Under the pieces are notes generated by a model, which did no database searches, was not told the DNA's origin, and saw only the letters and a list, made by a program, of their open reading frames with translations. A stretch of 18,486 nucleotides of DNA, taken from contig JBBQPO010000110.1 in NCBI GenBank assembly GCA_038217285.1, forward strand, positions 1 to 18,486. Direction: 5' to 3'. Source of the DNA: Chthonomonadales bacterium (GTDB lineage Bacteria; Armatimonadota; Chthonomonadetes; Chthonomonadales; Chthonomonadaceae). The translations under genes were made by a program, and so were the position numbers. Shown here in pieces: positions 2,606 to 18,460 of this stretch. Within the stretch, counting starts at the first letter, position 1; each line of letters begins with the position of its first letter.

Positions 2606-2665
2606 GAAGGGACGCCGCTTCCGAACCTCGATAAGGCGCAGAAGAAACGCTATCGAAGGCTTCTG

Positions 2666-2693
2666 ACAACTGACCGCGCAAGCGGTCAGTTGT
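2666..2693. repeat. Perfect 12-bp inverted repeat with GCAA loop (terminator-like or REP-like)
   Basis: ACAACTGACCGC-GCAA-GCGGTCAGTTGT between serC and the ankyrin gene; no clean U-tract. Confidence 0.75.
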
Positions 2694-2732
2694 GGTTGAT
2701 TGTGTCGTGGGTCTATTGGAAAGGTCGGCGAG

Positions 2733-4358: not shown

Positions 4359-4363
4359 TTTCT

Positions 4364-4822
4364 TCACTCTTCGTCCTCGGGGTCTTCACTGGACGGCTCC
4401 GGGGTTGGCGTCGCCTGTTGGCGCATCTGTTGGCGCAACAGCAGAACTTGCGAACGCATGGCGGCGTCCATCTGGCCGGACTGTGGGGCGGCGATCCAGC
4501 GCATCATGGAAGAGAGGAATAGCTCTTTCAGGTAGGCGAAGGAGAAGCCTTCTGTCAGGGCGACGATCTCCGTGATCCCCACGACCGAGAGTCGCATATC
4601 AGGCTCCAGCGCCGTGTTCCAGTGCGTGATATAGGCTTCGCGTTCGCCGGGGGCGGGCATTGCGAAGGTATATTTGCGGTCGAAGCGGCTGGGGCGGTCC
4701 AGAATGGCCGGGTCCAGCTTTTCCGGATGGTTGGTGGAGGCGATTACCACGACCCCGGTATTGTTTGCAAACCCATCCAGTTCGTTGAGGAAGAAGGAGC
4801 GGTTGCGGTCGTTGATGAGCGA
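4364..4822 (-). pseudogene. C-terminal half of an AAA+ ATPase, 5'-truncated
   Basis: Frame reads [49 protein letters not shown] (sensor 1 / arginine-finger SRH). Upstream of 4822 the frame stays open to a TAA at 5002-5000 but has no Walker A, no Walker B and no ATG/GTG/TTG. Confidence 0.85.
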
Positions 4823-4833
4823 GAGGAGGAGGC

Positions 4834-4853
4834 CGAAAAGGGGCCCCTTTTCG
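4834..4853. repeat. Perfect 20-bp palindrome
   Basis: CGAAAAGGGG|CCCCTTTTCG, 12 nt from the point where AAA+ similarity stops. Confidence 0.85.
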
Positions 4854-4982
4854 TTCTCCAGGCAGGATGTTACATCGGGCGCGTCGAAACGTCTTATGGA
4901 GCAACGACGGCAGAGAGGGGCCGCGCAGTTTAGCCTCTTGAAACCGAAACAACGCCGAAGAGAGACGTTGACAGGGCTGCGC

Positions 4983-5011
4983 TTGATTTTTGCGCGCCAT
5001 TATGATACTAT
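4983..5011 (+). promoter_or_regulatory. Putative sigma70 promoter of the downstream cluster
   Basis: TTGATT (4983-4988), 17-nt spacer, TACTAT (5006-5011), with an extended -10 TG at 5003-5004. Confidence 0.6.
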
Positions 5012-5176
5012 GGGGTAGTATATCATCCCCACCTCGAATTATTCTTGCTTCGGTTTGCAGCGGCGCGGTCACCTCTGCCGCCCATTCTGCAAACCGCCTG
5101 GAAGAAACGAAGAACGACGACGTTCCCTCCTGACGATCTGCGTTCACTCGTTTTCCCCATAAGAAGGGAAGCGTCC

Positions 5177-8100
5177 ATGCCTTGTTTCGGGAATAGCCTC
5201 TCGCCTCGCTCTGTTTGGAGCAGAGGTTTCGCATCCGTTCTGTTCGCGCTCCTGCTGCTCGGGGGAGTGGGCCGTGTCGCCCGCGCCGCCGACGTCACGA
5301 AAGAGTTTCAGGACAAGTATCGCGAGATCTACGGTGCCGTAGACGCGGCACGGCTGCAGCAGACGGTGCAAGACCTCGGTAAGTTCAAGTCGCGTGTCGC
5401 GGGCTATCCCGACAGCGACAAAGCCGCCGACTATGTCAAAGGACAGATTCAGGGGATCCTCGGTCCCGGCAGCGTACAGGAAGACGCATACCATATCACC
5501 ATTCCTTATGATCTCGGTGTGGACGATCCGGCGAAGGGCGCGTATGTGCAGGTAGTGCCAACCCCCGGCGGAGCGGCAGCGACGAGCGCGACCTTGGCTG
5601 CGGCCCCCTTGCGGATGTATCCGCTCTGGCCCAATCTGGTCCGCACCCCGACCCTCCCCGCCAACGGCCTGACCGCCCCCCTTATCTATGTCCGAGACGG
5701 CAAACTTCGCAACTTCAACGGCAAAGATGTAGACGGCGCGGTCGTCATGGTCGATTTCAACTGCGCGGCGGAGTGGATGAACGCCCCGCGCCTCGGCGCG
5801 AAAGCCGTCATCTTCGTCGCCCCGACCACCACGATGCGCGGCGAGGCTGAAGCCAAGTTCATCTCGATCCCCATCGCCATTCCCCGCTTCTATATGACCA
5901 AGGAGGACGCCGCGCCCCTGCTTGCCCAGTGCGTCAGCGGGCGCGCCCCGACGGTCAAGCTCACCTGCACTATGCCCTGGGAAACCAAAACAGGGCGCAA
6001 CTTCATGGCGAAGATCGAAGGCTCTGACCCCGAGCTGAAAAAGCAAGTCATCGTCGTGCAGTCCTACTACGACTCCACCTCGGTCGTACCTGCCCTCGCT
6101 CCCGGCGCGGATACGACCTGCGGCATGGCCGCCATGCTCGAGATGATGCGCTACTTCAAACAGCCGGAGCACCAGCCGAAGCGTACCATGTGGTTCGTCG
6201 CGACCAGTGCGCATTTCCAGGCGCTGCAGGGTATCCGGGAATATGTGCATGCGCATATGGACGAATGGACCGCGCCCAGCCTCGTCGAATCCGCGACCGC
6301 GAAAGAGAACGCCGGGCGCGTCAGCGTGTGGCTGGTCGGCGCTCTGGTCCTGTTCGCCGTGCTGCTGGTCGTTCGGCTGGCGCGTAAGCTGGCGGAGGGC
6401 GAGAAGCGGTTCAATGGCCCGACGGTCTTTGTCACGGTGTCCCTGTTCCTCATGCTGTTGCTCAACCTCGGCTTTTTCGCGCAGCCACGCGACAAGTCGG
6501 CGCATGAACCCCCCACGATCTACCTCTGGGCCGGGCTCGACCTCACCAGTCAGACACAGTCGTTCGGAATCTTCTATAAAGGCTGGTTCTTCGACTATCG
6601 CGAGGACATCCAGGGTCGCTTCAGCGACATCGCCCGCGTCTGCCGCGAGAACGCCGAGAAGGTCGGCACCACGCTTGGATTCAACTCAAAACGCTATTTC
6701 AACGACGGTGTCAACCCGGTAGACGGCAAGAACTGGCGCAACTTCATCCCCGGCAAGCCCGCCTTCGACTCCGAAGTCGTCACGGTCGCCGGCGGCAACG
6801 GCATCACCTTCGCCTCCACCGACGACAGCCGCTCCCTCGTAGACACGCCGTTCGATACCCCGGACAAGGTCAATATCGCCAACCTCGCGCAGCAGGTGAA
6901 GCTTCTCGACTGCCTGATGTGGCACATCGTGACCGATACCAATGCTCCCGGCGACGTGAACGCGCAGCGCATGCCGATCACCGATCCCTCCAAATGGTCC
7001 CGTATGGCGCTGCAGGGCGGCTTCGCGACGGTGCAGGGCCGGGTGCAGATGTTCAACCCGCGCAAATCCTTTATCGCCAACTCCGACCCCGCGCTCTCCG
7101 ACACCCTCGTCGTTGTCCGCAACCGCAATAAGTCGTTTATGGGCGTGCGCGGCAACATGGTGCAGCGCACCGAGTGGACCACCCCCGAGCGGATGCACGA
7201 GCTGACCTTCAACGCCGACGGCAGTCTGCGGAAAAACCTCGAGGGAGAGGCGCTGGCCAACTCCGGCCCGCCGATCCCGGCCTCCAACTTCTTCGCCTTC
7301 CACGGCATCGCTCCGCTCACGGCCTATGGCAACAACAAAGCCACGCTGCTCGCCGCCTACCATCTCGACTATCGCGACGAGCGCACCGACCCGAAAGATC
7401 CCACCGGCAAGACCAAAATTCCGAACCCCCTGCGCGGTGAAATCGACTACGCACCCGACCTCGGCAGCACCGGCGCGAAGTATGTGCCGCTGGACGTCAT
7501 GGTCACCACCGCCGTCAAAGAGACGCCGGTCATCGTGTTCCGGTGCGTTCCGACCGCCATCTACGACCTCGTCGATCAGCAGTCGCTGCGCGCTCTGACC
7601 GGCATCGACATCTACGATGGGGAGAGCAACGGCGAGCCGCGCATGTATGGCTACGCTATCGACCCACAGGACCCCTCGCTGGTCGGCTCCTATGTCGAGG
7701 ATGTCGCCGTCCTGTTCTCGCAGCCCGGCTCACGTCTGAAGATCGCCATGAACAGCGGCCCCGGCGCGACGCGCCTGCTGCTGATCAACTCGCAGTACGA
7801 CGCCTCCGATCCGTTCAACCTGAAGAACCTCTCCCCGGAGCCCGAGGGCAAAGGCTACCTTGTCGCGGGCAGCACAAAGGATGCGCAGAATGCCGACCTC
7901 CTGGGCGACCTGACGGACAAGGCCACTGACGATACGGGCGAGATTGCCAAATCCGGTGCGATCTACGATACCGCCCTGCACGTCGCCGAAGATATGCACC
8001 GGCTCGACGACTTCCGGATGCGCCGTCTGGCCAAGTACCGCATCCTCGATATGGACAGCGACGAAGGCGTGCCCGGCCTGCACAAACTGGCGGCAGGCGC

Positions 8101-10363
8101 GATCGCGCAGTCGAAAATAGACCTGAAAAACCGCGACTGGGAGCGTTTCGACGCCGACTCCCGCGCCGCCTGGGGCTACGAGAGCCGTGCCTACCCTGAT
8201 GTCCAGCAGACCGCGACCGATGTCGTGCAGGGCGTCCTCTTCTATCTGGCCCTGCTGCTGCCTTTCGCCTACTTCATGGAGCGGCTGCTGTTTGGCTTCT
8301 TCGACCTCAAGCGCCAGTTGGGCGCTGCCGCGCTGATCTTCCTGGTAATCTTCATGATGTTCCGCGCCGTACACCCGGCCTTCGACATCACCATGAACCC
8401 GATCATCGTGCTGCTGGCGTTCATCATGCTCGCGCTCTCCGTCATCGTCATCGGCCTCATCTCCGGCAAGTTCGAAGAGCAGTTGAAGCAGATGAACCAG
8501 AGCGCCGGCGGCATCCATCGCGCCGACATCGGGCGCGTCTCGGTCGCCCTCGCCGCGTTCAATCTCGGCATCTCCAACATGCGGCGACGCAAAGCCCGCA
8601 CCTTCCTCACCTGCGTCACGCTCGTTCTACTCACCTTCACCGTGCTGTCGTTCACCTCGGTCGTGCAGACCATCCGGTTCAATCAGGTGCCCGCCCCGAG
8701 CGACCACGGCCCGCGCTACAACGGCATCATGATCCGCACCGCCATGTGGGACCCGCTGCAGGAGCCGGCCTACCGTCTGCTGGCGGACGAGTACGGACGC
8801 GAGTACTCCGTCGCCCCCCGCGCCTGGTTCTACGGCACGCAGATGGGCGAGCAGTCGTTCCTGACCCTGCGCCGCGCCGACAAGTCCTACGATGCCAAGG
8901 CGATGGTCGGCCTCACACCGGCGGAGGCGAAGATCACGCATCTCCAGGAGGCGCTGCTGCCCGGTGGGCGCTGGTTCGAGCCAGGGGATGTCTATACGAC
9001 GATCCTGCCCGACTCCGTGGCCGCCGCCCTGCGCGTAGACGACGCCGATGTCGGCAAGGCCAAAGTGACCTATAGCGGCGTCGAGTACACCGTCATCGGG
9101 ATCCTCGACTCGCAGAAGCTCAAAGACATCGCCGACCTCGACAACGAGCCGCTGACCCCCGTCGACTTCATCGCCATGAACAAGATGTCGAAAGGCGCGA
9201 GCGGCGGCGGCGACCAGGGCTTCAAAGAGTACACCCACCTGGAGCCGGACTCGGTCTTCTTCATTCCCTACCAGACCGCGACCAACATGGGCGCGCAGTT
9301 GCGCTCCATCGGCATCGACTTCGCCCAGAAGGCCGAAGTGCTGAAACGCCTCAATCCGTTGATGCACCGTCTTGGTCTCAACCTCTATGCCGGACAGATC
9401 ACGCATCCCGAAATCGACGGCCCCAAGCGCGGCACCATCGAGCGCTACTCCTCGATCGCCGCTACCAGCGGACGCGGCCTGGAACTGGTCTTTTTCCCCA
9501 TTCTGATCGCCTCGCTCATCGTGCTCAACACGATGCTCGGCTCCGTCTACGAACGCATCAACGAGATCCACATCTTCTCCTCTATCGGTCTGGCCCCAGC
9601 GCATATTGGCATGCTCTTCATGGCGGAGGCGATGGTCTATGCGATCCTGGGCTCGGTGGCGGGCTACTTGCTCGGACAGTTCACCAGCAAACTGCTGGTG
9701 CTGACGCACTGGCTGCCGGATCTCTATCTGAACTTCTCCAGCGTCAGCGCGGTCATGACCACCCTGATCGTTGTTGCGGTCGTGCTGCTCTCGACGGTCT
9801 TCCCCGCTCGCAAAGCGTCGGAAGTCGCCACCCCCTCCGTAGACCGCACCTGGAAGATCGCCGATCCGCAGGGCGACCACTGGATCATCCCGCTGCCCTT
9901 CGCCGTCACGGGTGAGCAGGCGGCCGGTCTGAACGGCTTCCTGAGCGAATGGTTCCAGGCCTACGAGGAGTACAGCATCGGCGACTTCGTGACGCAGGGC
10001 GTGACCTCGGAGGAGTTCGAACACGCGAATGGCAACGCCTATCGCGTGAAATGTATGACCTGGCTCGCGCCCTTCGACCTGGGTGTCTCCCAGCGCGTCG
10101 CCATCGAGACGACGCCGACCGACACGCAGGACGTGTTCGAGATCCGCCTGCATATCGACCGTGAGTCCGGCGACATCTCCAACTGGAAGCGGGTCAACCG
10201 CCGCTTCCTCAACACGCTGCGCAAACAGTTCCTGATCTGGCGCACCCTCAAACAGTCCGAGCGCGAGCGCTATCTGCTCGCCGCCGAAACCGCCGCCATG
10301 CCAAAACAGGAGACCGAAGGCGCACCCGGCCTCGGAGGCGTAGAGCCCTCCCCCGCCGGATAG
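5177..10363 (+). CDS. Giant fusion: signal peptide + PA/degenerate M28 peptidase-like domain + extracytoplasmic region + type VII ABC (FtsX/MacB-like) permease
   Basis: Signal peptide ending VARA|AD; PA-like segment (APLIYV...DVDGAVVMV...LGAKAVIF); M28-like VVQSYYDS...APGAD...AAMLEMMRYF...PKRTMWFV; three-TM block at ~8230-8465; elbow helix plus TM1 (ISNMRRRKARTFLT); periplasmic core domain; FtsX motif SVYERINEIHIFSSIGL...MLFMAEA; PARKAS; soluble C-terminal tail. ATG 5177 with AAGGGAAG upstream is preferred over TTG 5045. Confidence 0.88.
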   Translation: MPCFGNSLSPRSVWSRGFASVLFALLLLGGVGRVARAADVTKEFQDKYREIYGAVDAARLQQTVQDLGKFKSRVAGYPDSDKAADYVKGQIQGILGPGSVQEDAYHITIPYDLGVDDPAKGAYVQVVPTPGGAAATSATLAAAPLRMYPLWPNLVRTPTLPANGLTAPLIYVRDGKLRNFNGKDVDGAVVMVDFNCAAEWMNAPRLGAKAVIFVAPTTTMRGEAEAKFISIPIAIPRFYMTKEDAAPLLAQCVSGRAPTVKLTCTMPWETKTGRNFMAKIEGSDPELKKQVIVVQSYYDSTSVVPALAPGADTTCGMAAMLEMMRYFKQPEHQPKRTMWFVATSAHFQALQGIREYVHAHMDEWTAPSLVESATAKENAGRVSVWLVGALVLFAVLLVVRLARKLAEGEKRFNGPTVFVTVSLFLMLLLNLGFFAQPRDKSAHEPPTIYLWAGLDLTSQTQSFGIFYKGWFFDYREDIQGRFSDIARVCRENAEKVGTTLGFNSKRYFNDGVNPVDGKNWRNFIPGKPAFDSEVVTVAGGNGITFASTDDSRSLVDTPFDTPDKVNIANLAQQVKLLDCLMWHIVTDTNAPGDVNAQRMPITDPSKWSRMALQGGFATVQGRVQMFNPRKSFIANSDPALSDTLVVVRNRNKSFMGVRGNMVQRTEWTTPERMHELTFNADGSLRKNLEGEALANSGPPIPASNFFAFHGIAPLTAYGNNKATLLAAYHLDYRDERTDPKDPTGKTKIPNPLRGEIDYAPDLGSTGAKYVPLDVMVTTAVKETPVIVFRCVPTAIYDLVDQQSLRALTGIDIYDGESNGEPRMYGYAIDPQDPSLVGSYVEDVAVLFSQPGSRLKIAMNSGPGATRLLLINSQYDASDPFNLKNLSPEPEGKGYLVAGSTKDAQNADLLGDLTDKATDDTGEIAKSGAIYDTALHVAEDMHRLDDFRMRRLAKYRILDMDSDEGVPGLHKLAAGAIAQSKIDLKNRDWERFDADSRAAWGYESRAYPDVQQTATDVVQGVLFYLALLLPFAYFMERLLFGFFDLKRQLGAAALIFLVIFMMFRAVHPAFDITMNPIIVLLAFIMLALSVIVIGLISGKFEEQLKQMNQSAGGIHRADIGRVSVALAAFNLGISNMRRRKARTFLTCVTLVLLTFTVLSFTSVVQTIRFNQVPAPSDHGPRYNGIMIRTAMWDPLQEPAYRLLADEYGREYSVAPRAWFYGTQMGEQSFLTLRRADKSYDAKAMVGLTPAEAKITHLQEALLPGGRWFEPGDVYTTILPDSVAAALRVDDADVGKAKVTYSGVEYTVIGILDSQKLKDIADLDNEPLTPVDFIAMNKMSKGASGGGDQGFKEYTHLEPDSVFFIPYQTATNMGAQLRSIGIDFAQKAEVLKRLNPLMHRLGLNLYAGQITHPEIDGPKRGTIERYSSIAATSGRGLELVFFPILIASLIVLNTMLGSVYERINEIHIFSSIGLAPAHIGMLFMAEAMVYAILGSVAGYLLGQFTSKLLVLTHWLPDLYLNFSSVSAVMTTLIVVAVVLLSTVFPARKASEVATPSVDRTWKIADPQGDHWIIPLPFAVTGEQAAGLNGFLSEWFQAYEEYSIGDFVTQGVTSEEFEHANGNAYRVKCMTWLAPFDLGVSQRVAIETTPTDTQDVFEIRLHIDRESGDISNWKRVNRRFLNTLRKQFLIWRTLKQSERERYLLAAETAAMPKQETEGAPGLGGVEPSPAG

Positions 10364-10410
10364 TCAGGGAGCGATTGAGAACGGGATTTCAGTCCCGAAA
10401 GAGGGGGTAG

Positions 10411-11574
10411 ATGGGCCGACCACGGACGCTGTTGATTCTGTTCTGTCTGGGTGTGGTGACTGCCGGTTCGGCGCGGGCCGATAAGGCAGGCGAAGCTCTG
10501 CTCGACCGGTGCATCCAGGCCGAGACGAAAGCGGCGCTGCTCCAGGCCGACTACTCCTCGGAGATCGTGCGCGGCCGGCAGACGGTCAAGGTTAAAGGGC
10601 ATTTCGTGCTCAAGAAGCCGAACTTCGCGCATATCGTCTACTCGGGCTCAGGCGGTGAGAAGGACGAGACGGTTCACTCGGATGGCCGCAAACTGCTGCA
10701 CTACATGGCGTCGGAGAAACAGTATACGCGTGAGACGCCCGATATGAGTGGCGGTAACGTGGTGCGCATGGCGAGCAGCCTGGAAGCCATGGTCTTTTTC
10801 AATCCGGATCTGCTCAACCAGTTCCGTGGGCTGGGATCGGGGCTCAAGATCGTCGGGACGGTGAAGATCGGCGGGACTGCCTGTCAGGCGCTGCAGGCGA
10901 CGGTGCGCGACGGCAATATCTACAAAGTCTATATCGGCCCCGATAACCTGCTGCATGGGATCTCGCAGATCATGGGCAAGGGCGATACGCGGCAGGTGCT
11001 GGAGAGCCGTCTGACGGGCGTGGGGATGGATGCGGGCAGCGCGGCCAAGCCCCTGGCCTGGACCCCTCCCGCCAAAGCGAAGCTCGTCGAGCAGATCACC
11101 CTGCAAGCCTCCTCCGGGGGCAGTGGGGCCAGCCCGGCGGCAGAACTGCTGGCGGTCGGCGCCGTCGCTCCCGCTTTCGATCTGGCGATGGTCACCGGCG
11201 AAAAGATGGCGCTCGCGACCCTGACGAAGCCGACGAAGGTCGTGCTGGTCAACTTCTGGGACTATGGCTGAGGCTTCTGCCGTGAGGAGTTGCCTCACCT
11301 GAATAAGATGCTGGCGGAGTTCAAAGGCAAAGGGTTCGACATCGTGACGGTGGACATCGGCGACAGCGCCGCCACCATTCAAAAGTTCTGGCAGGAAAAA
11401 GGGCTGCGCCTCCGCGCCCTGATGGACACCGACGGCAAAGTCGCGGAGAAGTACAAAGTTTCCGGCGTACCCTGCAACTATCTGATCGGAAACGACGGCA
11501 AAATCATCGCCCGCTTCGAGGGCTTCGATGAGGCGGGTATCCGGCAGGCGTTGGCGAAAGCAGGCATTCAGTGA
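10411..11574 (+). CDS. Exported LolA-like/TlpA-type redoxin fusion, predicted selenoprotein (UGA at 11269-11271 read as Sec; 387 aa)
   Basis: ORFs 10411..11271 and 11290..11574 are in the same frame. Read-through gives KVVLVNFWDYG-U-GFC-REELPHL, a thioredoxin U-x-x-C, and later the cis-Pro motif GVPCNYLI. N-terminal AxA signal peptide and LolA-like motifs (GHFVLKKPN, VHSDGRKLLHY...KQYT, WTPPAKAK). GAGGGGGT RBS. Confidence 0.88.
11269..11303 (+). promoter_or_regulatory. Bacterial SECIS-like hairpin
   Basis: After the UGA, GTGAGG (11282-11287) / loop AGTTG / CCTCAC (11293-11298) forms a perfect 6-bp stem. There are 16 nt between UGA and loop, the loop has G at position 2 followed by U, and a lower TTC/GAA pairing is possible. 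Confidence 0.7.
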
Positions 11575-11598
11575 ACAAGAGAAGGGGGACTCCGTAGC

Positions 11599-13647
11599 GT
11601 GGCGGAAGAAAATGAGATAGCCCAAATACGGCAGCAGGTCGAGACCGAATCCAGGGAAGAGGGCGCAGAGACTTCTGAGCCCCAGTTCGAAGAGGGATTC
11701 AGCAGTAAGACCGTCATCGGCGCCCTGTTCGTCGGGTTCATTATGCTGCCGGGCGCACTCTACCTGGGCCTCGTGGCGGGTCAGGGACTCGGCCCGGCGG
11801 CGGAGTGGGTCACCATCGTCCTGTTCTCCGAGATCATGCGGCGTTCGTTCCTGCCCATGAAGCGCCAGGAGATCTACATCCTCTACTATGTCGCGGCCGC
11901 TCTTACCGGACTGGCGGCGGACAAAGGGATCTCCGGAGGACCGTTCGGTGGCCTGATCTGGAACCAGTACTTCATCCAGTCTCCCCAGGCGGCGATCGTC
12001 GCGCGGGAGATACCGCACTGGGTCGTGCCACCTGCCGGCTCGGCGGCGCTTCAGCACCGTACCTTCTTCGATGCGGCCTGGGCGGTGCCAATCCTACTGC
12101 TGGTCGTTGGGGAGGTGCTGGGCCGTCTGAACTGGATGAGCGCCGGCTATTTCCTGTTCCGCGTTACGTCGGACATCGAACAGTTGCCGTTCCCCATGGC
12201 CCCCGTAGCCGCGTCCGGCGCGACCGCGCTGGCGGAAGCGGCGAGCAAAGAGGAGTCGTGGCGGTGGCGGGTCTTCTCCATCGGCAGCGTCATCGGCATG
12301 ATCTTTGGCTTCTTCTATATCGCGATCCCGGTCTTTACCGGCGTCGTGTTCGGCAAAGCCTTTACGCTGATACCCATTCCCTTCTTCGACACCACCACGA
12401 ACACGGAGACGATCCTGCCAGCCGCGTTGACCGGAATCTCCGGAGACCTCACGAAGGTGCTGACCGGATTCATCATCCCGTATCATATCGTGCTGGGTTC
12501 GCTGATCGGGTCGCTGGTCTGTCGTGTCGGCCTCGCGCCCATCCTCTACCATTTCGGCGCCTTCGGCAACTCGGAGAGCAACGGCTGGACACGGGGCATG
12601 GACGCCATCTTTACCAACCAGGCCATCAACATCAAGTTCTGGACCTCGGTCTCCATCGGCTTTCAACTGGCGATCGCCATCATCGGATTCTACAGCGTCT
12701 TCCGTTCGCTGTCCGCCTTACGGTCGCAGATGAAGAACCGGGGTCTGCAGGCCCGCATCCCCAAAGGACGCGGCGACCTGCCCCTCTGGATTCCGCTCTG
12801 CATCTGGCTCGGTGTCACAATCTTCTATATCGGCCTGACAAAGTACCTTCTGAACTACGATGGCGAACGCTTGCATCAGAACCACGCCTTCCCAATCTGG
12901 ATCCTGGTCTTCTATGGCCTTATCTGGTCTCCCATCAACTCCTATGTCTCCGCGCGTATGATCGGTATCACGGGCTCGGGGGTCTCCTTCCCATTCATGA
13001 AGGAGGTCTCGATCATGAAGTCGGGCTACCAGTACGCCGACATCTGGTATGCGCCGATTCCGCTCAACGACTACGGGGGGTTCGCGCAGAAGTTCCGCGA
13101 GGTCGAGTTGACCGGCACGAAGTTCACCAGTGTGGTCAAGGTCGAAGCGTTGATGCTGGTCCTGATCCTGCCCGCGAGCTTCGTCTTCTGGGCCTTCTTC
13201 TGGCACACCAGTCAGATACCGTCGTCGCAGCATCCCTACGCGCAGCACTTCTGGCCGATCCATGCGACCTTCCAGGCGATGTTCAACACCATCAACAAGC
13301 AGTCGGGCGGCATCGCCTGGGTCAAAGAGGCTATCGACTTCAAGCGGATCGTCGGCGGTGTGATCGTTGGGTTAGGCCTCTACGGCGTGTTCGGGCTGTT
13401 CAAGATCCCGATACTCGTCTTCTACGGCTTCATAGGGGGATCGGGCGCCTTCCCACACGATGTCATTCCGACCTTTATCGGGGCGGTGCTGGGCCGTCGC
13501 TACTTCGCCAAGCGGTTCGGACTGGAGAACTGGCGTATGTACACGCCGGTACTGCTGGCCGGGTTCTCATGCGGCACGGGCCTCGTCGCCATGGCCTCGA
13601 TCGCCCTCGCCCTGATCGCCAAATCGGTCAACTATCTGCCGTTCTAA
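11599..13647 (+). CDS. OPT-superfamily (oligopeptide/YSL-like) multi-pass transporter
   Basis: 682 aa with many hydrophobic helices; OPT-like N-terminus (KTVIGALFVG...ALYLGLVAG...), internal EQLPFPMAPVAA..ATAL motif, C-terminal LLAGFSCGTGL. GTG start with GAAGGGGG RBS. Confidence 0.75.
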   Translation: MAEENEIAQIRQQVETESREEGAETSEPQFEEGFSSKTVIGALFVGFIMLPGALYLGLVAGQGLGPAAEWVTIVLFSEIMRRSFLPMKRQEIYILYYVAAALTGLAADKGISGGPFGGLIWNQYFIQSPQAAIVAREIPHWVVPPAGSAALQHRTFFDAAWAVPILLLVVGEVLGRLNWMSAGYFLFRVTSDIEQLPFPMAPVAASGATALAEAASKEESWRWRVFSIGSVIGMIFGFFYIAIPVFTGVVFGKAFTLIPIPFFDTTTNTETILPAALTGISGDLTKVLTGFIIPYHIVLGSLIGSLVCRVGLAPILYHFGAFGNSESNGWTRGMDAIFTNQAINIKFWTSVSIGFQLAIAIIGFYSVFRSLSALRSQMKNRGLQARIPKGRGDLPLWIPLCIWLGVTIFYIGLTKYLLNYDGERLHQNHAFPIWILVFYGLIWSPINSYVSARMIGITGSGVSFPFMKEVSIMKSGYQYADIWYAPIPLNDYGGFAQKFREVELTGTKFTSVVKVEALMLVLILPASFVFWAFFWHTSQIPSSQHPYAQHFWPIHATFQAMFNTINKQSGGIAWVKEAIDFKRIVGGVIVGLGLYGVFGLFKIPILVFYGFIGGSGAFPHDVIPTFIGAVLGRRYFAKRFGLENWRMYTPVLLAGFSCGTGLVAMASIALALIAKSVNYLPF

Positions 13648-13682
13648 CCTGACCCCCATCCCCTTCCCGACACGGGAAGGGG
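13648..13682. repeat. REP-like intergenic palindromic element
   Basis: CCTGACCCCCAT followed by CCCCTTCCCG-ACA-CGGGAAGGGG (10-bp perfect stem), resembling the widespread CCTcACCCC...CCCTcTCCC..GGGAgAGGG bacterial repeat type; starts immediately after the stop codon. Confidence 0.7.
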
Positions 13683-13736
13683 CGCCCGAACCAGGAACGA
13701 CCTCGTGGTGTCTGAGTTTGGGTTTGGACACTTATC

Positions 13737-14558
13737 ATGCAAGTTGATGCTGTTCTAAATATCGTGCGCGGGGTCTGCATAGGGCTGTGTGTGCTGGCGT
13801 TCGCGGCAGGCGCGGCAGTCGGCTTTCGAACCAAGGATACCGGTCGCAGCGGCCGAAATCTGGTGGTGGCGGTCGGGTTGATCGCGCTTTTGCTCATCGG
13901 AGGAACGTATCCGCTGGCGACCGTGGTAGGCCCGATCATCGTTATGCTGGCGGGCTATCTGAGTTGCGCCCTGGGGGCGGCATTGCTCGGCGGCTACGGC
14001 GCGGGGCGCAAACGCAGCAAGGGGATTCCGAAGGGAGTCGCGCTCTATCTGGTCGTGACGGGCCTGGTGACGGCGCTTGCGCTGGCCAGGATGTTCGGGC
14101 TGCTCAATCCGCTCGTTGCGATCGACAAGCAGTTCCATACGGAAAAGTACGCTGCGAAAACGGATAAGAACTGCGCGGAGAACCTGCAGAGCCTCTACTT
14201 CGCTTTCGGGAAGTATGTCGAGTACAACGACGGCCTGCCGCCGGCGGAGAGTTGGCAGGACCAGGACGACCTCAAGGCCGCCATTCAGAAAGACGAGTGG
14301 CTGCACTGTCCGGCGGTCTCGAACCGGCACGACAATCAGTTCGGTTATGCGTACAATGTCGCGCTGTCGGGACGCAAGCTCCAGGGCAAAAAGCTGAACA
14401 AGATGCCGGACGCGGCTACAACGCCGCTGCTCTACGACTCGACGAATCTGGCGAAGAACGCGCACGACAGCCAGACCAGCCTGCCGAAGCCGGGACGACA
14501 CGGCGGCAAAAACAATATTCTATTCTGTGACGGTCATATCGAGAGTGTAGCTCCGTAG
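13737..14558 (+). CDS. Membrane protein with C-terminal DUF1559-like / H-X9-DG domain
   Basis: About four N-terminal hydrophobic helices; then KNCAENLQSLYFAFGKYVEYNDGLPP, LHCPA, YAYN and an exact H-GGKNNILFC-DGH (14499-14537). Confidence 0.82.
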   Translation: MQVDAVLNIVRGVCIGLCVLAFAAGAAVGFRTKDTGRSGRNLVVAVGLIALLLIGGTYPLATVVGPIIVMLAGYLSCALGAALLGGYGAGRKRSKGIPKGVALYLVVTGLVTALALARMFGLLNPLVAIDKQFHTEKYAAKTDKNCAENLQSLYFAFGKYVEYNDGLPPAESWQDQDDLKAAIQKDEWLHCPAVSNRHDNQFGYAYNVALSGRKLQGKKLNKMPDAATTPLLYDSTNLAKNAHDSQTSLPKPGRHGGKNNILFCDGHIESVAP

Positions 14559-14642
14559 TAACTCTCTATCGTCTCACAACGTGCGTTTGCAAAAGAGGGG
14601 GCGGGCACATTCGGCGTCTGCCTCGAAGAACGGTTTTATTTT

Positions 14643-15713
14643 ATGGCGGTTCACGTGGAAAAGCGCGGGGAGTTGGCGGACGTGGCGAGCGCGGAAGTGC
14701 TGCCGACAACGACGGTGGTGGGATGGCAGGGCGTTCGGTTCCAACTGCCGCCCGAATGGAACGTCAGCGCGTTCTCGATGGATCGGGACAACGGCTCGCT
14801 GCGCGTAGATGCGCCGGGCAGCAGCAGTCTGACGGTACAGATCCGGTGGATGAACGCGGCCAAGCCGCAGAGAGAGGGGCCGCCCACGGCGTACCACTAT
14901 CTCGCGCCGCTGTTTCGAAAATGGTTCCGACGGCCGGACCCGCCGGTGCCGAAGACCGACCTGAAAGCCAATATCGAGCGCAGTCTGAAAGAGACGGCGA
15001 AGCAGGCGAAGAAGAACAAGGCCAGCTTTGAGAGCACGATCCGCGCGGAGAAGACCGAAGGCAGGGACAATGAGCGCAGCTCGATCAACTTTTCGTGGAT
15101 AGACGCGGGACGCGGACAGGGCAAGATCTGGCAGTGTTCCGTCTGCAACCGGATCGTTATCGCGCAGGTGGTCGGGCTGGCGAAAGACCAGGCGGCGATT
15201 AGCGCCGTGGCGTCGCAGCTCTTCGCCACCCTGGAAGACCATCCGACCGACGGCTACGACCTGTGGGCGCTCTACGATCTGCAGATCGGCATTCCGGAAG
15301 ATTTTCGGCTGGAAGAGCAGAAGCTGCTCTCCGGCTATCTGCATCTGAGCTTCGCGCGCGGCGGCGAGAAGATCATCGTGGACCGGTGGGGGCTGGCGAA
15401 CGTGACGCGCAAGAAGTTCAGCCTGGCCGACTGGTTCGCCAACCACGCGTTCGTCCGGCTGAAACGCCTGACGAAAGACGAAGAGACGCTCTACGATCAT
15501 GAGGCCATCCACTATGTCGGCAGCCTCAGCTTCTTCGACCGTCTGCGCCTGCTGCGAGACGCCAAGACGTCGCTGCGCCGCTTCCCGACCCGCTACGAGG
15601 GGGGCTTATGGGAGTGCGTCGATTCGAACAAGCTCTACGCCGTGCAGGTGCTGCACAGCCAGAAGACGGAAGGACTATGGGACGAGGTTACTGACCGATG
15701 CGTTTGCCACTGA
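14643..15713 (+). CDS. Hypothetical cytoplasmic protein with internal duplication and Cys/His motifs
   Basis: 356-aa ORF with GC3-rich codon pattern inside the operon; no signal peptide or TM; two similar halves (WQGVRFQLPPEW...WQCSVCNR...LEDH and LYDLQIGIPEDF...WECVDSNK...CVCH). Confidence 0.78.
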   Translation: MAVHVEKRGELADVASAEVLPTTTVVGWQGVRFQLPPEWNVSAFSMDRDNGSLRVDAPGSSSLTVQIRWMNAAKPQREGPPTAYHYLAPLFRKWFRRPDPPVPKTDLKANIERSLKETAKQAKKNKASFESTIRAEKTEGRDNERSSINFSWIDAGRGQGKIWQCSVCNRIVIAQVVGLAKDQAAISAVASQLFATLEDHPTDGYDLWALYDLQIGIPEDFRLEEQKLLSGYLHLSFARGGEKIIVDRWGLANVTRKKFSLADWFANHAFVRLKRLTKDEETLYDHEAIHYVGSLSFFDRLRLLRDAKTSLRRFPTRYEGGLWECVDSNKLYAVQVLHSQKTEGLWDEVTDRCVCH

Positions 15714-16135
15714 AGATGCGCCTCTACTACGGAATCGGACGCTATCTGCCATTTCTGAAGATTCGTCCGCCGGATGTCGATAGGCAGGCGACGCTGACGC
15801 TCCGGCCCGGCCGGAACGCTCTGCTGACCTGGGAGAAGCGCGAGACGGGCGGTACACTGCTGACGGTGCCGCAGAACGCCAAAGCGGGCCGAATCACCAA
15901 AACGATGGCGAAATGGCTGCGCGCTCCCACCGAGCGCCAGGTCGAACTGGACGAGGTGGGCGCCTATGTGTGGGAACTGTGCGATGGCAGTCATACCGTC
16001 GAGACAATCGTCCAGAAGACGGGCAGACAGTATAAGATGAACCGACGCGAGGCAGAAGTCTCCGTCACGATGTTTCTGCAGATGCTGCACGAGCGTAATT
16101 TCATAGGCTTCTATAAAAAAGTCAAAAAGAGTTGA
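15698..16135 (+). CDS. PqqD-family / RiPP recognition element (RRE) protein
   Basis: ELDEVGAYVWELCDGSHTVETIV...Y...EAEVSVTMFLQMLHERNFI fits the PqqD pattern; GAGGT RBS; overlaps the upstream gene by 16 nt. Confidence 0.85.
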   Translation: MRLPLKMRLYYGIGRYLPFLKIRPPDVDRQATLTLRPGRNALLTWEKRETGGTLLTVPQNAKAGRITKTMAKWLRAPTERQVELDEVGAYVWELCDGSHTVETIVQKTGRQYKMNRREAEVSVTMFLQMLHERNFIGFYKKVKKS

Positions 16136-16148
16136 GGGAAAATAACCT

Positions 16149-16775
16149 ATGAGCGATCAATCTATCCAGCAGCCCATTCAGGCTTCCATCAAGGTGCAGA
16201 AGCAGGTTTCGCTGCGCTTCTCAAAAGCCTGGGAGATCACGATCAAGAGCATTAAGATACGCTTGGCCCGTTCGCTTATCACGGCGGCCGGTATCGCCCT
16301 TGGTATCGCCTTCTACAGCTCGGTGCGGGCCGCCGGTCTGTTCCCGTCGGAGGGGGTCGGCGCGGAGGCCCTGGCGGCGGCGCACCGGCAGCAGTGGCTG
16401 GCGGTCATGGCCCTTATGGTCTGCTTCGTCGGTATCATGAACTCCATGCTGATGTCGGTGACGGAGCGGTTCAAAGAGATCGGCACGATGAAGTGCCTCG
16501 GAGCCCTGAACCGCGACATCATCATGCTCTTCTTCCTCGAAGCCATGCTCATGGGCCTGACGGCCTCGTTCCTGGGCTGGCTGGTCGGCTGGCTCATCGT
16601 GGTGGTCATTCACCTCTTCACCGGCGGCTTTCAGCCCGCGTTCATCGGCGGTTCGCTCGTGCAGATGTTGCTCTCAACGGGCATCGGCGTCGCGATCACG
16701 CTGCTGGCGGGGATTCCGCCCGCCATCAACGCCGCGCGTATGGCTCCCGCCGTCGCGCTGCGCTCGTCCATCTAA
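16149..16775 (+). CDS. Minimal FtsX-like (type VII ABC) permease lacking a large periplasmic domain
   Basis: KSIKIRLARSLITAAGIALGIAF (elbow + TM1), GIMNSMLMSVTERFKEIGTMKCLGA...LFFLEA, PAINAARMAPAVALR; only ~25 aa between TM1 and TM2. Confidence 0.92.
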   Translation: MSDQSIQQPIQASIKVQKQVSLRFSKAWEITIKSIKIRLARSLITAAGIALGIAFYSSVRAAGLFPSEGVGAEALAAAHRQQWLAVMALMVCFVGIMNSMLMSVTERFKEIGTMKCLGALNRDIIMLFFLEAMLMGLTASFLGWLVGWLIVVVIHLFTGGFQPAFIGGSLVQMLLSTGIGVAITLLAGIPPAINAARMAPAVALRSSI

Positions 16776-16800
16776 TATCAAAAGAAAGGGTTCCTAATTC

Positions 16801-17538
16801 ATGGGCGCCAATGAGTATGTGGTTCGCACAAAAGGCCTGATCAAAGAGTTCACGATGGGCGATGAAACCCTCCGCGCCCTGAACGGCGTGGATCTGGACA
16901 TTCGACGTGGCGAGTATATCTCGATCATGGGCCCTTCCGGCTCCGGCAAATCGACGCTGTTCAACGCCATCGGCGGCCTGGACAAGCCGACTTCCGGCTC
17001 GGTCTTCATCAACGACGTCGATATGGCGCAGCTGGATGCCTCCGAACTGGCCTATTTGCGCTGCCACACCATCGGCTATATCTTCCAGTCGTATAACCTT
17101 ATCCCCGTTATGACCGCGCTTGAGAACGTGGTGCTGCCGACGATCTTCGCCGGAATGCCCACCGACGAAGGCGTCGAGCGCGGTATGGAGATGCTCAACA
17201 AGGTCGGCCTGGGGCATCGCTTCCACCACCGTCCCACGGAGCTCTCTGGAGGCCAGCAGCAGCGCGTCGCCATCGCCCGTTCTCTGGCGAACCGACCCGC
17301 CATCGTCCTCGCCGACGAGCCGACCGGCAACCTGGATCTGAAGACCGGGACCGAGATCATCGAACTGCTGCGCGAGTTGAACCGCAATGAAGGCGTGACG
17401 ATCATCTCGGCGACCCACGACTATAAAATGGTCGATGTTTCGGACCGTGTCGTCTGGATTCGAGACGGCCGTATCGCCAAGATCGAAGAGCGCGCCGACA
17501 TCGATATCACCGTCGGCGAGATGCACGTCGAAGAGTAG
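16801..17538 (+). CDS. ABC transporter ATP-binding protein, LolD/MacB/FtsE type
   Basis: Walker A GPSGSGKST, IGYIFQSYNL Q-loop, LSGGQQQR signature, Walker B IVLADEPTGNLD, ATHD switch. Confidence 0.97.
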   Translation: MGANEYVVRTKGLIKEFTMGDETLRALNGVDLDIRRGEYISIMGPSGSGKSTLFNAIGGLDKPTSGSVFINDVDMAQLDASELAYLRCHTIGYIFQSYNLIPVMTALENVVLPTIFAGMPTDEGVERGMEMLNKVGLGHRFHHRPTELSGGQQQRVAIARSLANRPAIVLADEPTGNLDLKTGTEIIELLRELNRNEGVTIISATHDYKMVDVSDRVVWIRDGRIAKIEERADIDITVGEMHVEE

Positions 17539-17576: not shown

Positions 17577-18410
17577 ATGAAGTTTGCATCGAAGCAGATC
17601 GTTGGCGCGGGGGTTTTCCTCGCGTTCGGCGCGGGATGCGGGGCCGTTCTTACGGCGCAGGCTCAGCAACAGCAGGACGAACATCTCGGCTATCAGGATA
17701 CGCCCATGCTCGGCAGGTGGCATGTCCACGACGGCCTGCGGCCGCAGCCGACAGAGATCGACCCCGGCACAGCCAGCACCAACCGCAGGCCCGGTCGCCC
17801 GCCGTCCGATGCCGTTGTGTTGTTCAACGGCAAGAATCTCTCCCACTGGACGAGCCAGAGCGGTGGAGCGCCGGGCTGGAAAGTGGAGCACGGCTACATG
17901 GAAGTCGCCTCCAAAGAGTCGATCATCACGCGCGACCAGATCGGCGACTGCCAACTGCACGTTGAATGGTCCGCCCCTAAGCCGCCGACAGGCACAGGGC
18001 AGGGGCGCGGCAACAGCGGTGTGCTGTTTTTCGGCCGATACGAGATCCAGGTGCTGGACAGCTACAAGGCGAAGACCTATCCGGACGGGCAGGCGGGAGC
18101 GCTCTATGGCAGCTATCCCCCGCTCGTCAACGCCATGCGCAAACCCGGCGAGTGGCAGGTCTATGACATCCTCTTCACCGTACCGCGCTTCGACGGCGCA
18201 AAGCTGGTCAAGCCCGGCTACTTCACCGTGATCCACAACGGCGTCGTGGTGCAGAATCACGTGGAACTGCTCGGCAACTCCAATCACCGCGCCCTGCCCA
18301 ACTACCAGGCGCATCCGCCGAAGGGCTCTCTTCTCCTTCAGAACCACGGCAACCCTGTCCGCTACCGCAACGTCTGGTACCGCGAACTCAAAGAGTACGA
18401 TCAGCCCTGA
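17577..18410 (+). CDS. Secreted DUF1080 (3-keto-disaccharide hydrolase-like) protein
   Basis: Signal peptide; PPSDAVVLFNGKNL, DCQLHVEW, GNSGV, YEIQVLD, GEWQVYDI, HNGVVVQ, LQNHGNPVRYRNVW signatures; AGGAG/GGAG RBS. Confidence 0.92.
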   Translation: MKFASKQIVGAGVFLAFGAGCGAVLTAQAQQQQDEHLGYQDTPMLGRWHVHDGLRPQPTEIDPGTASTNRRPGRPPSDAVVLFNGKNLSHWTSQSGGAPGWKVEHGYMEVASKESIITRDQIGDCQLHVEWSAPKPPTGTGQGRGNSGVLFFGRYEIQVLDSYKAKTYPDGQAGALYGSYPPLVNAMRKPGEWQVYDILFTVPRFDGAKLVKPGYFTVIHNGVVVQNHVELLGNSNHRALPNYQAHPPKGSLLLQNHGNPVRYRNVWYRELKEYDQP

Positions 18411-18427: not shown

Positions 18428-18460
18428 AGGCCGCCCGAAACAAAATCGGGCGGCCTTTTT
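18428..18460 (+). terminator. Rho-independent terminator closing the cluster
   Basis: AGGCCGCCCGA-AACAAAA-TCGGGCGGCCT, 11-bp stem followed by a T-run. Confidence 0.9.

Follow-up and report, generated by a model that had tools for sequence, protein, structure and literature searches.

A conserved six-gene block of Armatimonadota encoding a predicted type VII ABC transporter with a dead-peptidase permease, an OPT-like permease and a PqqD-type recognition protein

The DNA analysed here (the window) is an 18,486-nucleotide (nt) stretch of contig JBBQPO010000110.1 from a Chthonomonadales bacterium of the phylum Armatimonadota. It carries eight adjacent genes, G1 to G8, of which six (G1, G3, G5, G6, G7 and G8) make up one conserved functional module of Armatimonadota. 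These six occur in a fixed order on an all-or-none basis, except at two Abditibacteriota loci, and their products very probably work as one machine. From sequence, G1, G7 and G8 are predicted to form a type VII ATP-binding cassette (ABC) transporter, G3 resembles permeases of the oligopeptide transporter (OPT) superfamily, G5 is a protein with conserved cysteines and histidines, and G6 is a PqqD-type recognition element of the kind found in pathways for ribosomally synthesised and post-translationally modified peptides (RiPPs). The preliminary description of this DNA had proposed eight co-oriented, tightly spaced genes, and these are confirmed at 5177-17538 (+), with gaps of -16 to 89 nt between them. 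Its identification of type VII ABC parts, a pseudo-peptidase, a RiPP recognition element (RRE) and a Cys/His protein likewise stands. The genes are as follows.

5177-10363, + strand: G1, giant permease, 1728 amino acids (aa), from the open reading frame (ORF) list and family scans
10411-11574, + strand: G2, redoxin, 387 aa, with the TGA at 11269-11271 read through
11599-13647, + strand: G3, OPT-like permease, 682 aa
13737-14558, + strand: G4, H-X9-DG protein, 273 aa
14643-15713, + strand: G5, Cys/His protein, 356 aa
15698-16135, + strand: G6, PqqD/RRE protein, 145 aa, overlapping G5 by 16 nt
16149-16775, + strand: G7, small FtsX permease, 208 aa
16801-17538, + strand: G8, ABC ATPase, 245 aa

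Conservation of the gene block

An alignment scan for G3 relatives, with one genome per species, returned at least 592 places, and the locus counts given here come from the best 80 of these, nearly all of them in Armatimonadota or Abditibacteriota. All window proteins were compared with the 80 loci by tblastn, which matched G1 at 54, G5 at 50, G6 at 47, G7 at 52 and G8 at 50. G4 was matched at 17, the N-terminal part of G2 at 9 and its redoxin part at 10, one of the last being an unrelated redoxin on the minus strand (L055). G2 and G4 are lineage-limited add-ons and lie outside the six-gene core.

Gene order was read at the 47 loci whose G3 homologue is flanked by at least 5.5 kb on the upstream side and at least 5 kb on the downstream side (full-flank loci). 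The order G1-G3-G5-G6-G7-G8 on a single strand is present at 33 of them, none of the five partners of G3 at 12, and G1-G3 alone at two (Abditibacteriota L066 and L077). Profile hidden Markov models of G5 and G6 found neither protein at E <= 0.01 in the 14 loci that lack them, and recovered four of four positive controls. G1 is the immediate upstream neighbour of G3 at 41 of the 57 loci with sufficient upstream sequence. No further gene family is common to more than 15 of the 42 complete loci. The co-occurrence first proposed from this single stretch is borne out by these counts, which also separate core from accessory genes. A search of plasmids with G3, G5 and the C-terminal half of G1 (tblastn) gave no match.

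A passage of a report on Chthonomonas calidirosea (PMC4959169) calls the genome of this bacterium 'nonoperonic', its his, trp and pur genes being dispersed. As far as that passage goes, the dispersal of operons in the phylum makes the retained gene order more telling. A strict order in such a phylum also implies a functional link that is testable in cultured Armatimonadota.

The 12 partner-less loci bear on a reading in which two systems lie side by side, G3 being an independent peptide transporter next to an unrelated ABC transporter. All 12 fall within one 21-row clade of the G3 tree (SH-aLRT 99) labelled Fimbriimonadia/Fimbriimonadales, which keeps G3 at 51-56% identity with no partner within 10 kb. 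G3 may therefore not need the rest, or the partners could lie elsewhere in these genomes. The neighbours of partner-less G3 genes differ from locus to locus. Against two systems stand the frequent position of G1 directly upstream of G3, the retention of the G1-G3 pair as the sole part present at the Abditibacteriota loci, and the persistence of the order across several Armatimonadota lineages despite the operon dispersal described in the passage cited above. On this balance, two independent systems are very unlikely.

At the same two Abditibacteriota loci (L066 and L077, about 3500-15700), a divergent LysR-type regulator gene is found upstream of G1-G3, and several genes for small double-zinc-ribbon membrane proteins and a DUF1152 gene are found downstream.

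The ABC transporter proteins G1, G7 and G8

The ORF of G1 is open from a TTG at 5045, and the ATG at 5177 is preceded by a ribosome-binding site, AAGGGA. Residue numbers of G1 count from 5045 unless stated, and on that numbering its parts are as follows.

aa 57-81: first transmembrane (TM) helix, TM1 (hydropathy)
aa 85-1056: ectodomain, a dead peptidase followed by a domain without detectable relative
5297-6990, + strand, about aa 85-650: PA/M28-like pseudo-peptidase part of the ectodomain (match to PDB 2ek8 and residue alignment)
6326-6481, + strand, aa 428-479: TM-hairpin insertion in the M28-like fold (MAFFT alignment)
6992-8212, + strand, about aa 650-1056: part of the ectodomain without known family, about 400 aa
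aa 1064-1138: TM4-6, three transmembrane helices (hydropathy)
8609-9799, + strand, aa 1189-1585: MacB/LolC-type unit, made up of a TM helix, a predicted periplasmic core domain and the FtsX bundle of three TM helices
9800-10360, + strand, aa 1586-1772: cytoplasmic C-terminal domain

Both permeases contain the FtsX domain (PF02687), which scores 52 bits in G1 and 65.9 bits in G7 against a cut-off of 25.5. The MacB-type unit of G1 matches MacB (3.7e-8) and LolC (1.2e-5) in the PDB, as well as YtrF and LolF, and G7 matches MacB at E = 2.2e-14. The periplasmic core domain of G1 (MacB_PCD, PF12704) reaches 27.0 bits, which equals the cut-off of 27. Hydropathy leaves about 25 residues between TM1 and TM2 of G7, so that the form in the window has almost no ectodomain; one clade has a G7 with an ectodomain. 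These longer proteins, of 427-628 aa, are encoded in L062 (13634-14917), L073 (13405-15276) and L074 (8085-9971), and the ectodomain inserted in them contains about four repeats of a motif of some 20 residues ending in A-G-(I/V/L)-P.

G8 is 73-95% identical across loci, and its 44 homologues retain the ATPase motifs almost throughout (Walker A in 44, LSGG in 42, Walker B with its glutamate in 44 and the H-loop in 44). Its best NCBIfam match is LolD (TIGR02211, 239.7 bits against a cut-off of 307.75), and MacB (220 bits) and FtsE (196.5 bits) also score below their equivalog cut-offs. The export ATPases of darobactin (213.5 bits) and lactococcin-972 (183.5 bits) are matched below cut-off too. 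The Lol equivalogs of the permeases are missed by far, with LolC at 24.5 against 473 bits, and lolCE at 15 (G1) and 31.5 (G7) against 362.45. Taken together, these matches suggest that G1, G7 and presumably two copies of G8 assemble into a heteromeric mechanotransducer of the type VII (MacB/LolCDE) class.

Among the closest known systems is MacB, which gives the best PDB matches of both the C-terminal half of G1 and G7. MacB and MacAB-TolC share with the proteins described here the FtsX four-helix unit, a periplasmic core domain that is borderline by score in G1, and an ATPase of LolD/MacB type, either separate or fused. Unlike MacAB-TolC, the conserved genes here include no MacA-like adaptor and no TolC. 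They differ from MacB in having two dissimilar permeases, one (G1) with some 1100 extra N-terminal residues and a cytoplasmic tail of 190 aa and the other (G7) with nearly no ectodomain, and in having an OPT-like permease and an RRE as partners.

A likeness to LolCDE-LolA is also apparent, in the predicted heterodimeric permease, the LolD-like ATPase and a LolA-like periplasmic domain encoded nearby in Chthonomonadaceae. The proteins could on this basis form a Lol-like extractor for envelope biogenesis, in which G1, G7 and G8 would pull lipidated or hydrophobic cargo from the membrane, with a LolA-like carrier in some lineages. The two unlike permeases would then correspond to LolC and LolE, and G8, best matched by LolD, is highly conserved. 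The N-terminal domain of G2 matches LolA structures (E of 1e-5), and G4 has the H-X9-DG motif of pseudopilin-like proteins. However, all Lol equivalog cut-offs are missed (that of LolD as well as that of LolC), most forms of G7 are without a periplasmic domain, and the LolA-like domain is fused to a redoxin in a protein found at few loci, with G2 at no more than 10 and G4 at 17 of the 80. Such an extractor would also leave G3 and the G5/G6 pair unexplained, and we regard it as decidedly unlikely.

The N-terminal part of the G1 ectodomain is related to M28 aminopeptidases. Peptidase_M28 is matched in Pfam at 42-46 bits against a cut-off of 21.3, all 34 of 34 G1 segments matching, and the best structural relative is the PA-domain aminopeptidase 2ek8 (E = 8.6e-10), followed by other M28 aminopeptidases and, weakly, by nicalin (E = 0.11). 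Catalytic residues were checked in 44 aligned sequences (the window protein and 43 others), which allowed no residue-level alignment of the last two zinc ligands. None of the 44 has the His of the HxD motif, its place being taken by Y, F, M or S. The Glu-Glu pair is absent from all 44, where His is followed instead by F, H, N, C, Y or G. The position of the bridging Asp is occupied by Asp or Glu in 44 of 44. Judged from this loss of the alignable catalytic residues in every sequence, the M28 domain of G1 is catalytically dead. The motifs around the lost residues are conserved, which suggests that a binding pocket has been retained.

In most forms of G1 the Pfam alignment covers only the first 80 or so positions of the M28 model; in L006 it extends to position 182 of 193, and in the two Abditibacteriota forms to 138-140. 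The short matches are explained by a hairpin inserted within the M28 fold, and with the hairpin inside it the dead-peptidase fold extends to about aa 650. The insert, of 60-70 aa with two hydrophobic 19-mers, is present in 15 of 40 evaluable homologues, including the window protein, and absent from 25 (46 were examined, of which 6 were not evaluable). Its distribution is mixed among close relatives, being found in L001, L002 and L009 and missing from L004, L005, L007 and L008. With the dead M28-fold receptors nicalin and nicastrin and with PA-domain aminopeptidases G1 shares an M28 fold with a PA-like insert, and with the dead receptors also the loss of catalytic residues; it differs from them in its fusion to an ABC permease and in the hydrophobic hairpin of some forms. 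In function, the dead peptidase of G1 may resemble nicalin and nicastrin.

The remainder of the ectodomain, from about aa 650, had no meaningful Pfam match in any of 45 aligned members and no PDB relative by profile search, and its alignment by hhalign with one true M28 peptidase gave no support for kinship. The shorter relatives of this middle domain look like fragments of the same giant proteins, judging from their Pfam labels, names and short contigs. TM4-6 was compared in the same way with the FtsX helices, again with no support (E = 0.78).

The cytoplasmic C-terminal domain is the most conserved non-ATPase part of the system, at 56-81% identity among 48 homologues, and is retained in Abditibacteriota G1. 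Its profile found no PDB relative, and hhalign gave no support for a relationship with G5. Together with the membrane part it is covered by a PADLOC model, PDLC01991 ('CARF_m8--CARF_LolE_TM'), positions 36-681 of 810 of which match aa 977-1690 of G1 (here counted from 5177) with E = 6.4e-60. By part, the three-TM segment corresponds to positions 71-189, the FtsX unit to 186-555 and the C-terminal domain to 543-682 (E = 4.5e-8). The N-terminal 975 residues of G1 lie outside the model, and its last 130 positions, 682-810, have no counterpart in G1. A sister model of 1791 positions, 'CARF_Beta-galactosidase_LolE_TM', matches chiefly the FtsX unit. The membrane and C-terminal module of G1 is thus already catalogued as an uncharacterised entity, with no function attached.

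The CARF_m8 model names reportedly stem from a 2020 classification of CARF domains. They raise the prospect of a ligand-gated effector in signalling or defence, the C-terminal domain of G1 being a nucleotide sensor of CARF type that switches the transporter. The strong match of the model to G1, and that of the C-terminal domain on its own, are what this prospect has in its favour. Against it, the end of the model is unmatched, no other CARF model matches the C-terminal domain at E <= 10, the domain is without a PDB relative, and each G1/G7 pair has just one of it. Neither the window nor the families shared by at least 5 of the 42 loci include CRISPR or cyclase genes. A CARF-type switch is extremely unlikely.

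Among the papers searched, none dealt with the combination of an ABC transporter with an OPT-like permease and an RRE, with an FtsX-like permease together with peptidase M28, or with DUF6784/DUF6785. The statement in the preliminary description that no known pathway combines these parts agrees with that result, and has to be narrowed in that the C-terminal half of G1 was already represented in PADLOC. Type VII ABC transporters are understood through a few models, namely MacB, LolCDE, FtsEX, BceAB and HrtBA. To these the proteins described here would add a new architecture, in which a giant subunit combines a dead PA/M28 peptidase with a conserved tail domain in the cytoplasm, and a minimal second subunit. 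The partners are equally unexpected for a type VII ABC transporter: an OPT-like permease, an RRE and a Cys/His family of about 1,700 clusters at 50% identity.

G3, the cytoplasmic pair and a proposed mechanism

G3 belongs to a family of 1623 proteins (E <= 0.001 among 8000 candidates scored), of which the closest are from Chthonomonadaceae in the phylum Armatimonadota and which, where named, are called 'hypothetical protein' or 'peptide transporter'. In the Atlas, G3 stands closest to clusters labelled 'peptide transporter' (score 0.98), the first of them being annotated as OPT on 33% of its members, and next to DUF6784/DUF6785 clusters (0.87-0.88). Atlas clusters resembling G3 are also indicated for Lentisphaerota, Planctomycetota and Thermoproteota. 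Hydropathy shows at least 10 separate hydrophobic segments. The protein had initially been called an OPT transporter, and that call is left borderline. The Pfam model OPT (PF03169) did not match G3 of the window at E <= 10, nor any of 14 aligned relatives at E <= 1. One orthologue, in L047, passes with 27.0 bits against a cut-off of 25.8; seven intact homologues were scanned, an eighth locus being left uncounted because its ORF missed the gene start. A profile search found no PDB relative, and alignment of the two halves of G3 with hhalign gave no internal duplication (E = 0.28). In its size (a large polytopic protein of about 680 aa), its Atlas neighbours and the score of this one orthologue G3 is like the OPT family (TC 2.A.67), and in the three negative results it is unlike it. 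We regard G3 as a putative, divergent OPT-superfamily permease, borderline by sequence.

A conserved N-terminal tail of G3 was considered as a docking peptide for G6 and set aside. The tail is kept in many stand-alone G3 proteins as well, so the docking idea is not discriminated.

G5 is without a relative in Pfam, NCBIfam or the PDB among 47 G5 sequences scanned, the PDB profile search giving only hits with E > 2. Its family is nevertheless large, with 1684 clusters at 50% identity matched at E <= 0.001 and 920 at E <= 1e-10, and its Atlas neighbours are unnamed clusters of Armatimonadota and Thermodesulfobacteriota. Several cysteines and histidines are invariant or nearly so: C165 (47 of 47), C168 (45 of 47), H200 (45 of 47), H286 (43 of 47) and C325 (44 of 47), and at the C-terminus C355 (42 of 42) and H356 (41 of 41). 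The N- and C-terminal halves give a weak hint of a repeat in hhalign (E = 0.0024, probability 12%). No fused domains were found in 11 long relatives of G5.

G6 matches PF05402 with 53.3 bits against a cut-off of 23.4 and has an N-terminal extension; on this domain match it is a PqqD-type RRE. Its scores lie below the cut-offs of the RiPP subfamilies, with PQQ at 35.9 against 46, lasso at 32.9 against 80, Scm at 29 against 100 and Geo at 25.2 against 100. Of 47 loci, 22 have a G6 start that overlaps the stop of G5, and 18 more have one no further than 30 nt from it (40 in all), counts made with the nearest available start of G6, a choice that favours small gaps. G6 shares with PqqD, lasso B1 and ScmD the PF05402 domain and the stretch L-D-E-V-G-x-x-V-W-x-L-C-D-G. 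It differs from them in its pairing with the Cys/His protein G5, and its surroundings lack genes for a radical SAM enzyme, a lasso cyclase, a protease or a precursor.

Since PqqD-type RREs are known mainly from RiPP pathways, and G6 resembles PqqD, lasso-PqqD and ScmD below their cut-offs, the locus might export or mature a ribosomal peptide. G6 would bind the leader and G5 process it, G3 or some other route would take it across the membrane, and the ABC transporter would expel or position it. The below-cut-off likeness of G8 to the darobactin and lactococcin-972 export ATPases fits with this, as do the TatA-like genes of three loci and the periplasmic redoxin of Chthonomonadaceae. However, a precursor gene at the locus had to be dropped as a candidate, as neither the gaps between G3 and G5 at 23 loci nor the families shared across 42 loci yielded a conserved precursor-like ORF of at least 18 aa. 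No modifying enzyme is conserved either, in line with the absence of any widely shared further family. Moreover, known OPT transporters import, and type VII ABC transporters act on substrates that are already external. We consider peptide export or maturation unlikely.

We instead tentatively favour, as a possible rather than a probable course, the capture of peptides by G1, their ATP-driven hand-over to G3, import, and receipt by the RRE and Cys/His proteins. In a first step, a peptide or unfolded polypeptide on the outer side of the cytoplasmic membrane would be bound by its free N-terminus in the dead aminopeptidase pocket of G1. ATP hydrolysis by G8, transmitted by the FtsX-type helices, would then shift the ectodomain so that the peptide passes to G3, which would carry it inward in the manner of an OPT transporter. 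Finally, G6 may bind the peptide as an added beta-strand and present it to G5 for metal-dependent processing or sensing. Nutritional, signal and antimicrobial peptides are all conceivable as substrates.

This mechanism is favoured because of the known behaviour of the three families: type VII ABC systems work on extracytoplasmic substrates, characterised OPT transporters import peptides, and RREs bind peptides. The peptide theme and the inward direction are drawn from the Atlas clusters of G3, from the OPT score of the L047 orthologue and from peptidase genes at a few loci. Among six loci with a stand-alone G3 that were scanned, L027 has a gene for a tricorn/S41-type protease next to G3, and L047 one for a true M28 peptidase on the opposite strand, about 2.7 kb from G3. 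At one of the 80 loci, L012, a secreted S9 family peptidase (7730-9937, +; 735 aa, with the motif G-G-S-A-G-G) is encoded between G1 and G3, and is 44% identical to annotated S9 peptidases.

A special case of peptide import would be the capture, import and neutralisation of antimicrobial peptides, as a form of resistance akin to BceAB or Sap. Permeases of the MacB/BceB class are annotated for antimicrobial peptide transport, and this reading would use every core part, from the ectodomain as receptor through the importer and the cytoplasmic binder to G5 as a possible Cys/His hydrolase. On the other side, G5 belongs to no recognisable protease family, the conservation across the phylum looks like that of a housekeeping function, and, unlike in Bce systems, no two-component sensor is found among the families shared across loci. 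A resistance role is very improbable.

Several points weigh against peptide import in general. The Fimbriimonadia keep G3 with none of its partners nearby, and G3 of the window and its aligned relatives fail to match the Pfam OPT family. Nutritional peptide import needs no RRE. The conservation of G8 and of the C-terminal domain of G1 fits a housekeeping function at least as well as scavenging. The accessory genes (LolA-like redoxin, TatA-like and pseudopilin-like) would suit envelope biogenesis or export just as well as import, and the PADLOC name suggests a ligand-sensing domain of CARF type for which the import mechanism has no use. The physical complex, its substrate, the direction of transport and the roles of G5 and G6 are all proposed from sequence, and contacts between any two of the proteins are a proposal at that level.

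A further step would be a physical coupling of the type VII ABC transporter to an OPT-fold secondary permease and a cytoplasmic receiver made of the RRE and a zinc protein. The ABC part would contribute its dead aminopeptidase as a receptor, akin to nicastrin or nicalin, and its ATP-driven motion on the outer face would send a specific peptide or an unfolded protein into a proton-driven channel. We consider this coupling doubtful. If the parts do form one machine, mechanotransmission would be linked to secondary transport and the RRE would have a role outside RiPP synthesis; if true, ABC mechanotransmission would here for the first time serve another transporter, and an RRE would for the first time work outside RiPP biosynthesis.

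Accessory genes, transcription signals and surroundings

G2 consists of a signal peptide, a LolA-like N-terminal domain and a TlpA/ResA-like redoxin with the active site U-G-F-C. The redoxin domain, at the C-terminus of G2, scores 76 bits for AhpC-TSA and 59 bits for Redoxin, and matches ResA in the PDB at about 1e-27. The N-terminal domain profile matched eight distinct LolA sequences of the PDB at E < 1e-3 (the best at 1e-5 to 1e-4) over two colinear stretches; in Pfam its score for DUF2092, 16.9 bits, is below cut-off.

The predicted selenocysteine (U) corresponds to an in-frame TGA (11269-11271, +) that aligns with the first Cys of the CxxC motif, and reading through it raises the redoxin Pfam score from 43.6 to 76. 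Six orthologues have Cys at this position (L001, L002, L005, L006, L007 and L008), while L022, 84-88% identical to G2 of the window, also has TGA; L003 has Phe, and the gene in L004 is disrupted. A candidate bacterial selenocysteine insertion sequence (SECIS) hairpin lies at 11282-11298 (+), with a 6-bp stem and a 5-nt loop containing G and U in the centroid fold. It begins 13 nt downstream from the U of the UGA and is identical in L022, and its fold energy is no better than that of shuffled sequences (z = -0.04). On the strength of the Cys/Sec pair, the assignment of G2 as a selenoprotein is well supported. The preliminary description's selenoprotein redoxin stands in this respect, and its place in the system does not, since G2 is not a core gene.

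G2 shares with ResA, TlpA and DsbE redoxins and their selenoprotein forms the thioredoxin fold, U-x-x-C taking the place of C-x-x-C. Among the latter it scores far below the cut-offs of NF041054 (WAxxUGC; 42.7 against 300) and NF053656 (TUGYCR; 15.1 against 100), and is unlike known selenoprotein redoxins in its motif W-D-Y-G-U-G-F-C and in the LolA-like fusion. The residue after the cis-Pro of the redoxin (about 11470-11484, V-P-C-N-Y) is Cys in the two Sec forms only and Thr in the six Cys forms. This Cys might be a resolving residue that co-varied with Sec. The alternation of Sec and Cys in G2 provides a clean natural pair for the study of selenocysteine use in envelope redox enzymes.

G4 has four TM helices by hydropathy and an extracytoplasmic domain ending in H-X9-DG, a motif present in the window protein and in 16 of 17 homologues. 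Its score for TIGR04294 is 15.9 against a cut-off of 19, its N-terminus comprises the four hydrophobic helices with no prepilin signal, and its soluble domain has no PDB relative. In one clade, an ORF of 68-71 aa recognised by eye as TatA/E-like lies between G3 and G5 (L020, 12032-12241; L036, 12040-12246; L079, 12050-12265).

A ninth gene follows G8 and precedes the terminator. The signals that delimit transcription, and this gene, are as follows.

4983-5011, + strand: promoter-like element, with TTGATT at 4983-4988, a 17-nt spacer with TG at -14, and TACTAT at 5006-5011
17577-18410, + strand: ninth gene, DUF1080 / 3-keto-disaccharide hydrolase (Pfam 137.5 bits), with a signal peptide
18428-18456, + strand: hairpin resembling an intrinsic terminator, 11 pairs of which 9 are G-C, then a T tail, TTTTCGTGTA

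The gaps from G1 through the DUF1080 gene are 47, 24, 89, 84, -16, 13, 25 and 38 nt. A single promoter had been proposed upstream of G1. A generic consensus scan of 4358-5177 found no promoter-like site with at least 9 of 12 matches on the + strand, the conserved element falling below that threshold. All 13 Chthonomonadales sequences examined nonetheless have the motif TTGNNN-N13-17-TGNTANNAT on the upstream side of their G1 homologue (regular expression and alignment), against about 0.01 chance matches expected per 420-nt search by plain arithmetic, with no shuffle control. The element implies a 5' leader of about 160 nt for G1. The predicted leader (5018-5185, +) folds better than shuffled sequences (z = -2.5, 3 of 200 as good), and an Rfam scan gave no match in it. 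A conserved RNA structure there was considered and rejected, as RNAalifold on eight loci found in common only a 4-bp pairing with the ribosome-binding site.

The terminator at 18428-18456 is the sole strong site of its kind on the + strand downstream of G1, as first described, with the correction that the ninth gene comes before it. The DUF1080 gene, 38 nt 3' of G8, probably shares this terminator and its transcript with G8, and lies outside the conserved module; one other locus, L019, has the same arrangement.

Upstream of G1 are genes for 5S ribosomal RNA (rRNA), a GH16 protein, a SerC-like protein and an ankyrin-repeat protein (2700-4358). The 5S rRNA is complete (331-447, +; 83.7 bits, E = 7e-17), so the window begins at the end of an rRNA operon; no transfer RNA gene is found anywhere in it. 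Between the ankyrin gene and the G1 promoter, an ORF on the minus strand (4364-4750) covers just the C-terminal portion of an AAA ATPase (positions 103-129 of the Pfam AAA model) and is probably a gene remnant. In L001, L002 and L007 the SerC-like gene adjoins G1, and the presence of the ankyrin gene and the AAA remnant between the two in the window (region 1520-4358) suggests an insertion.

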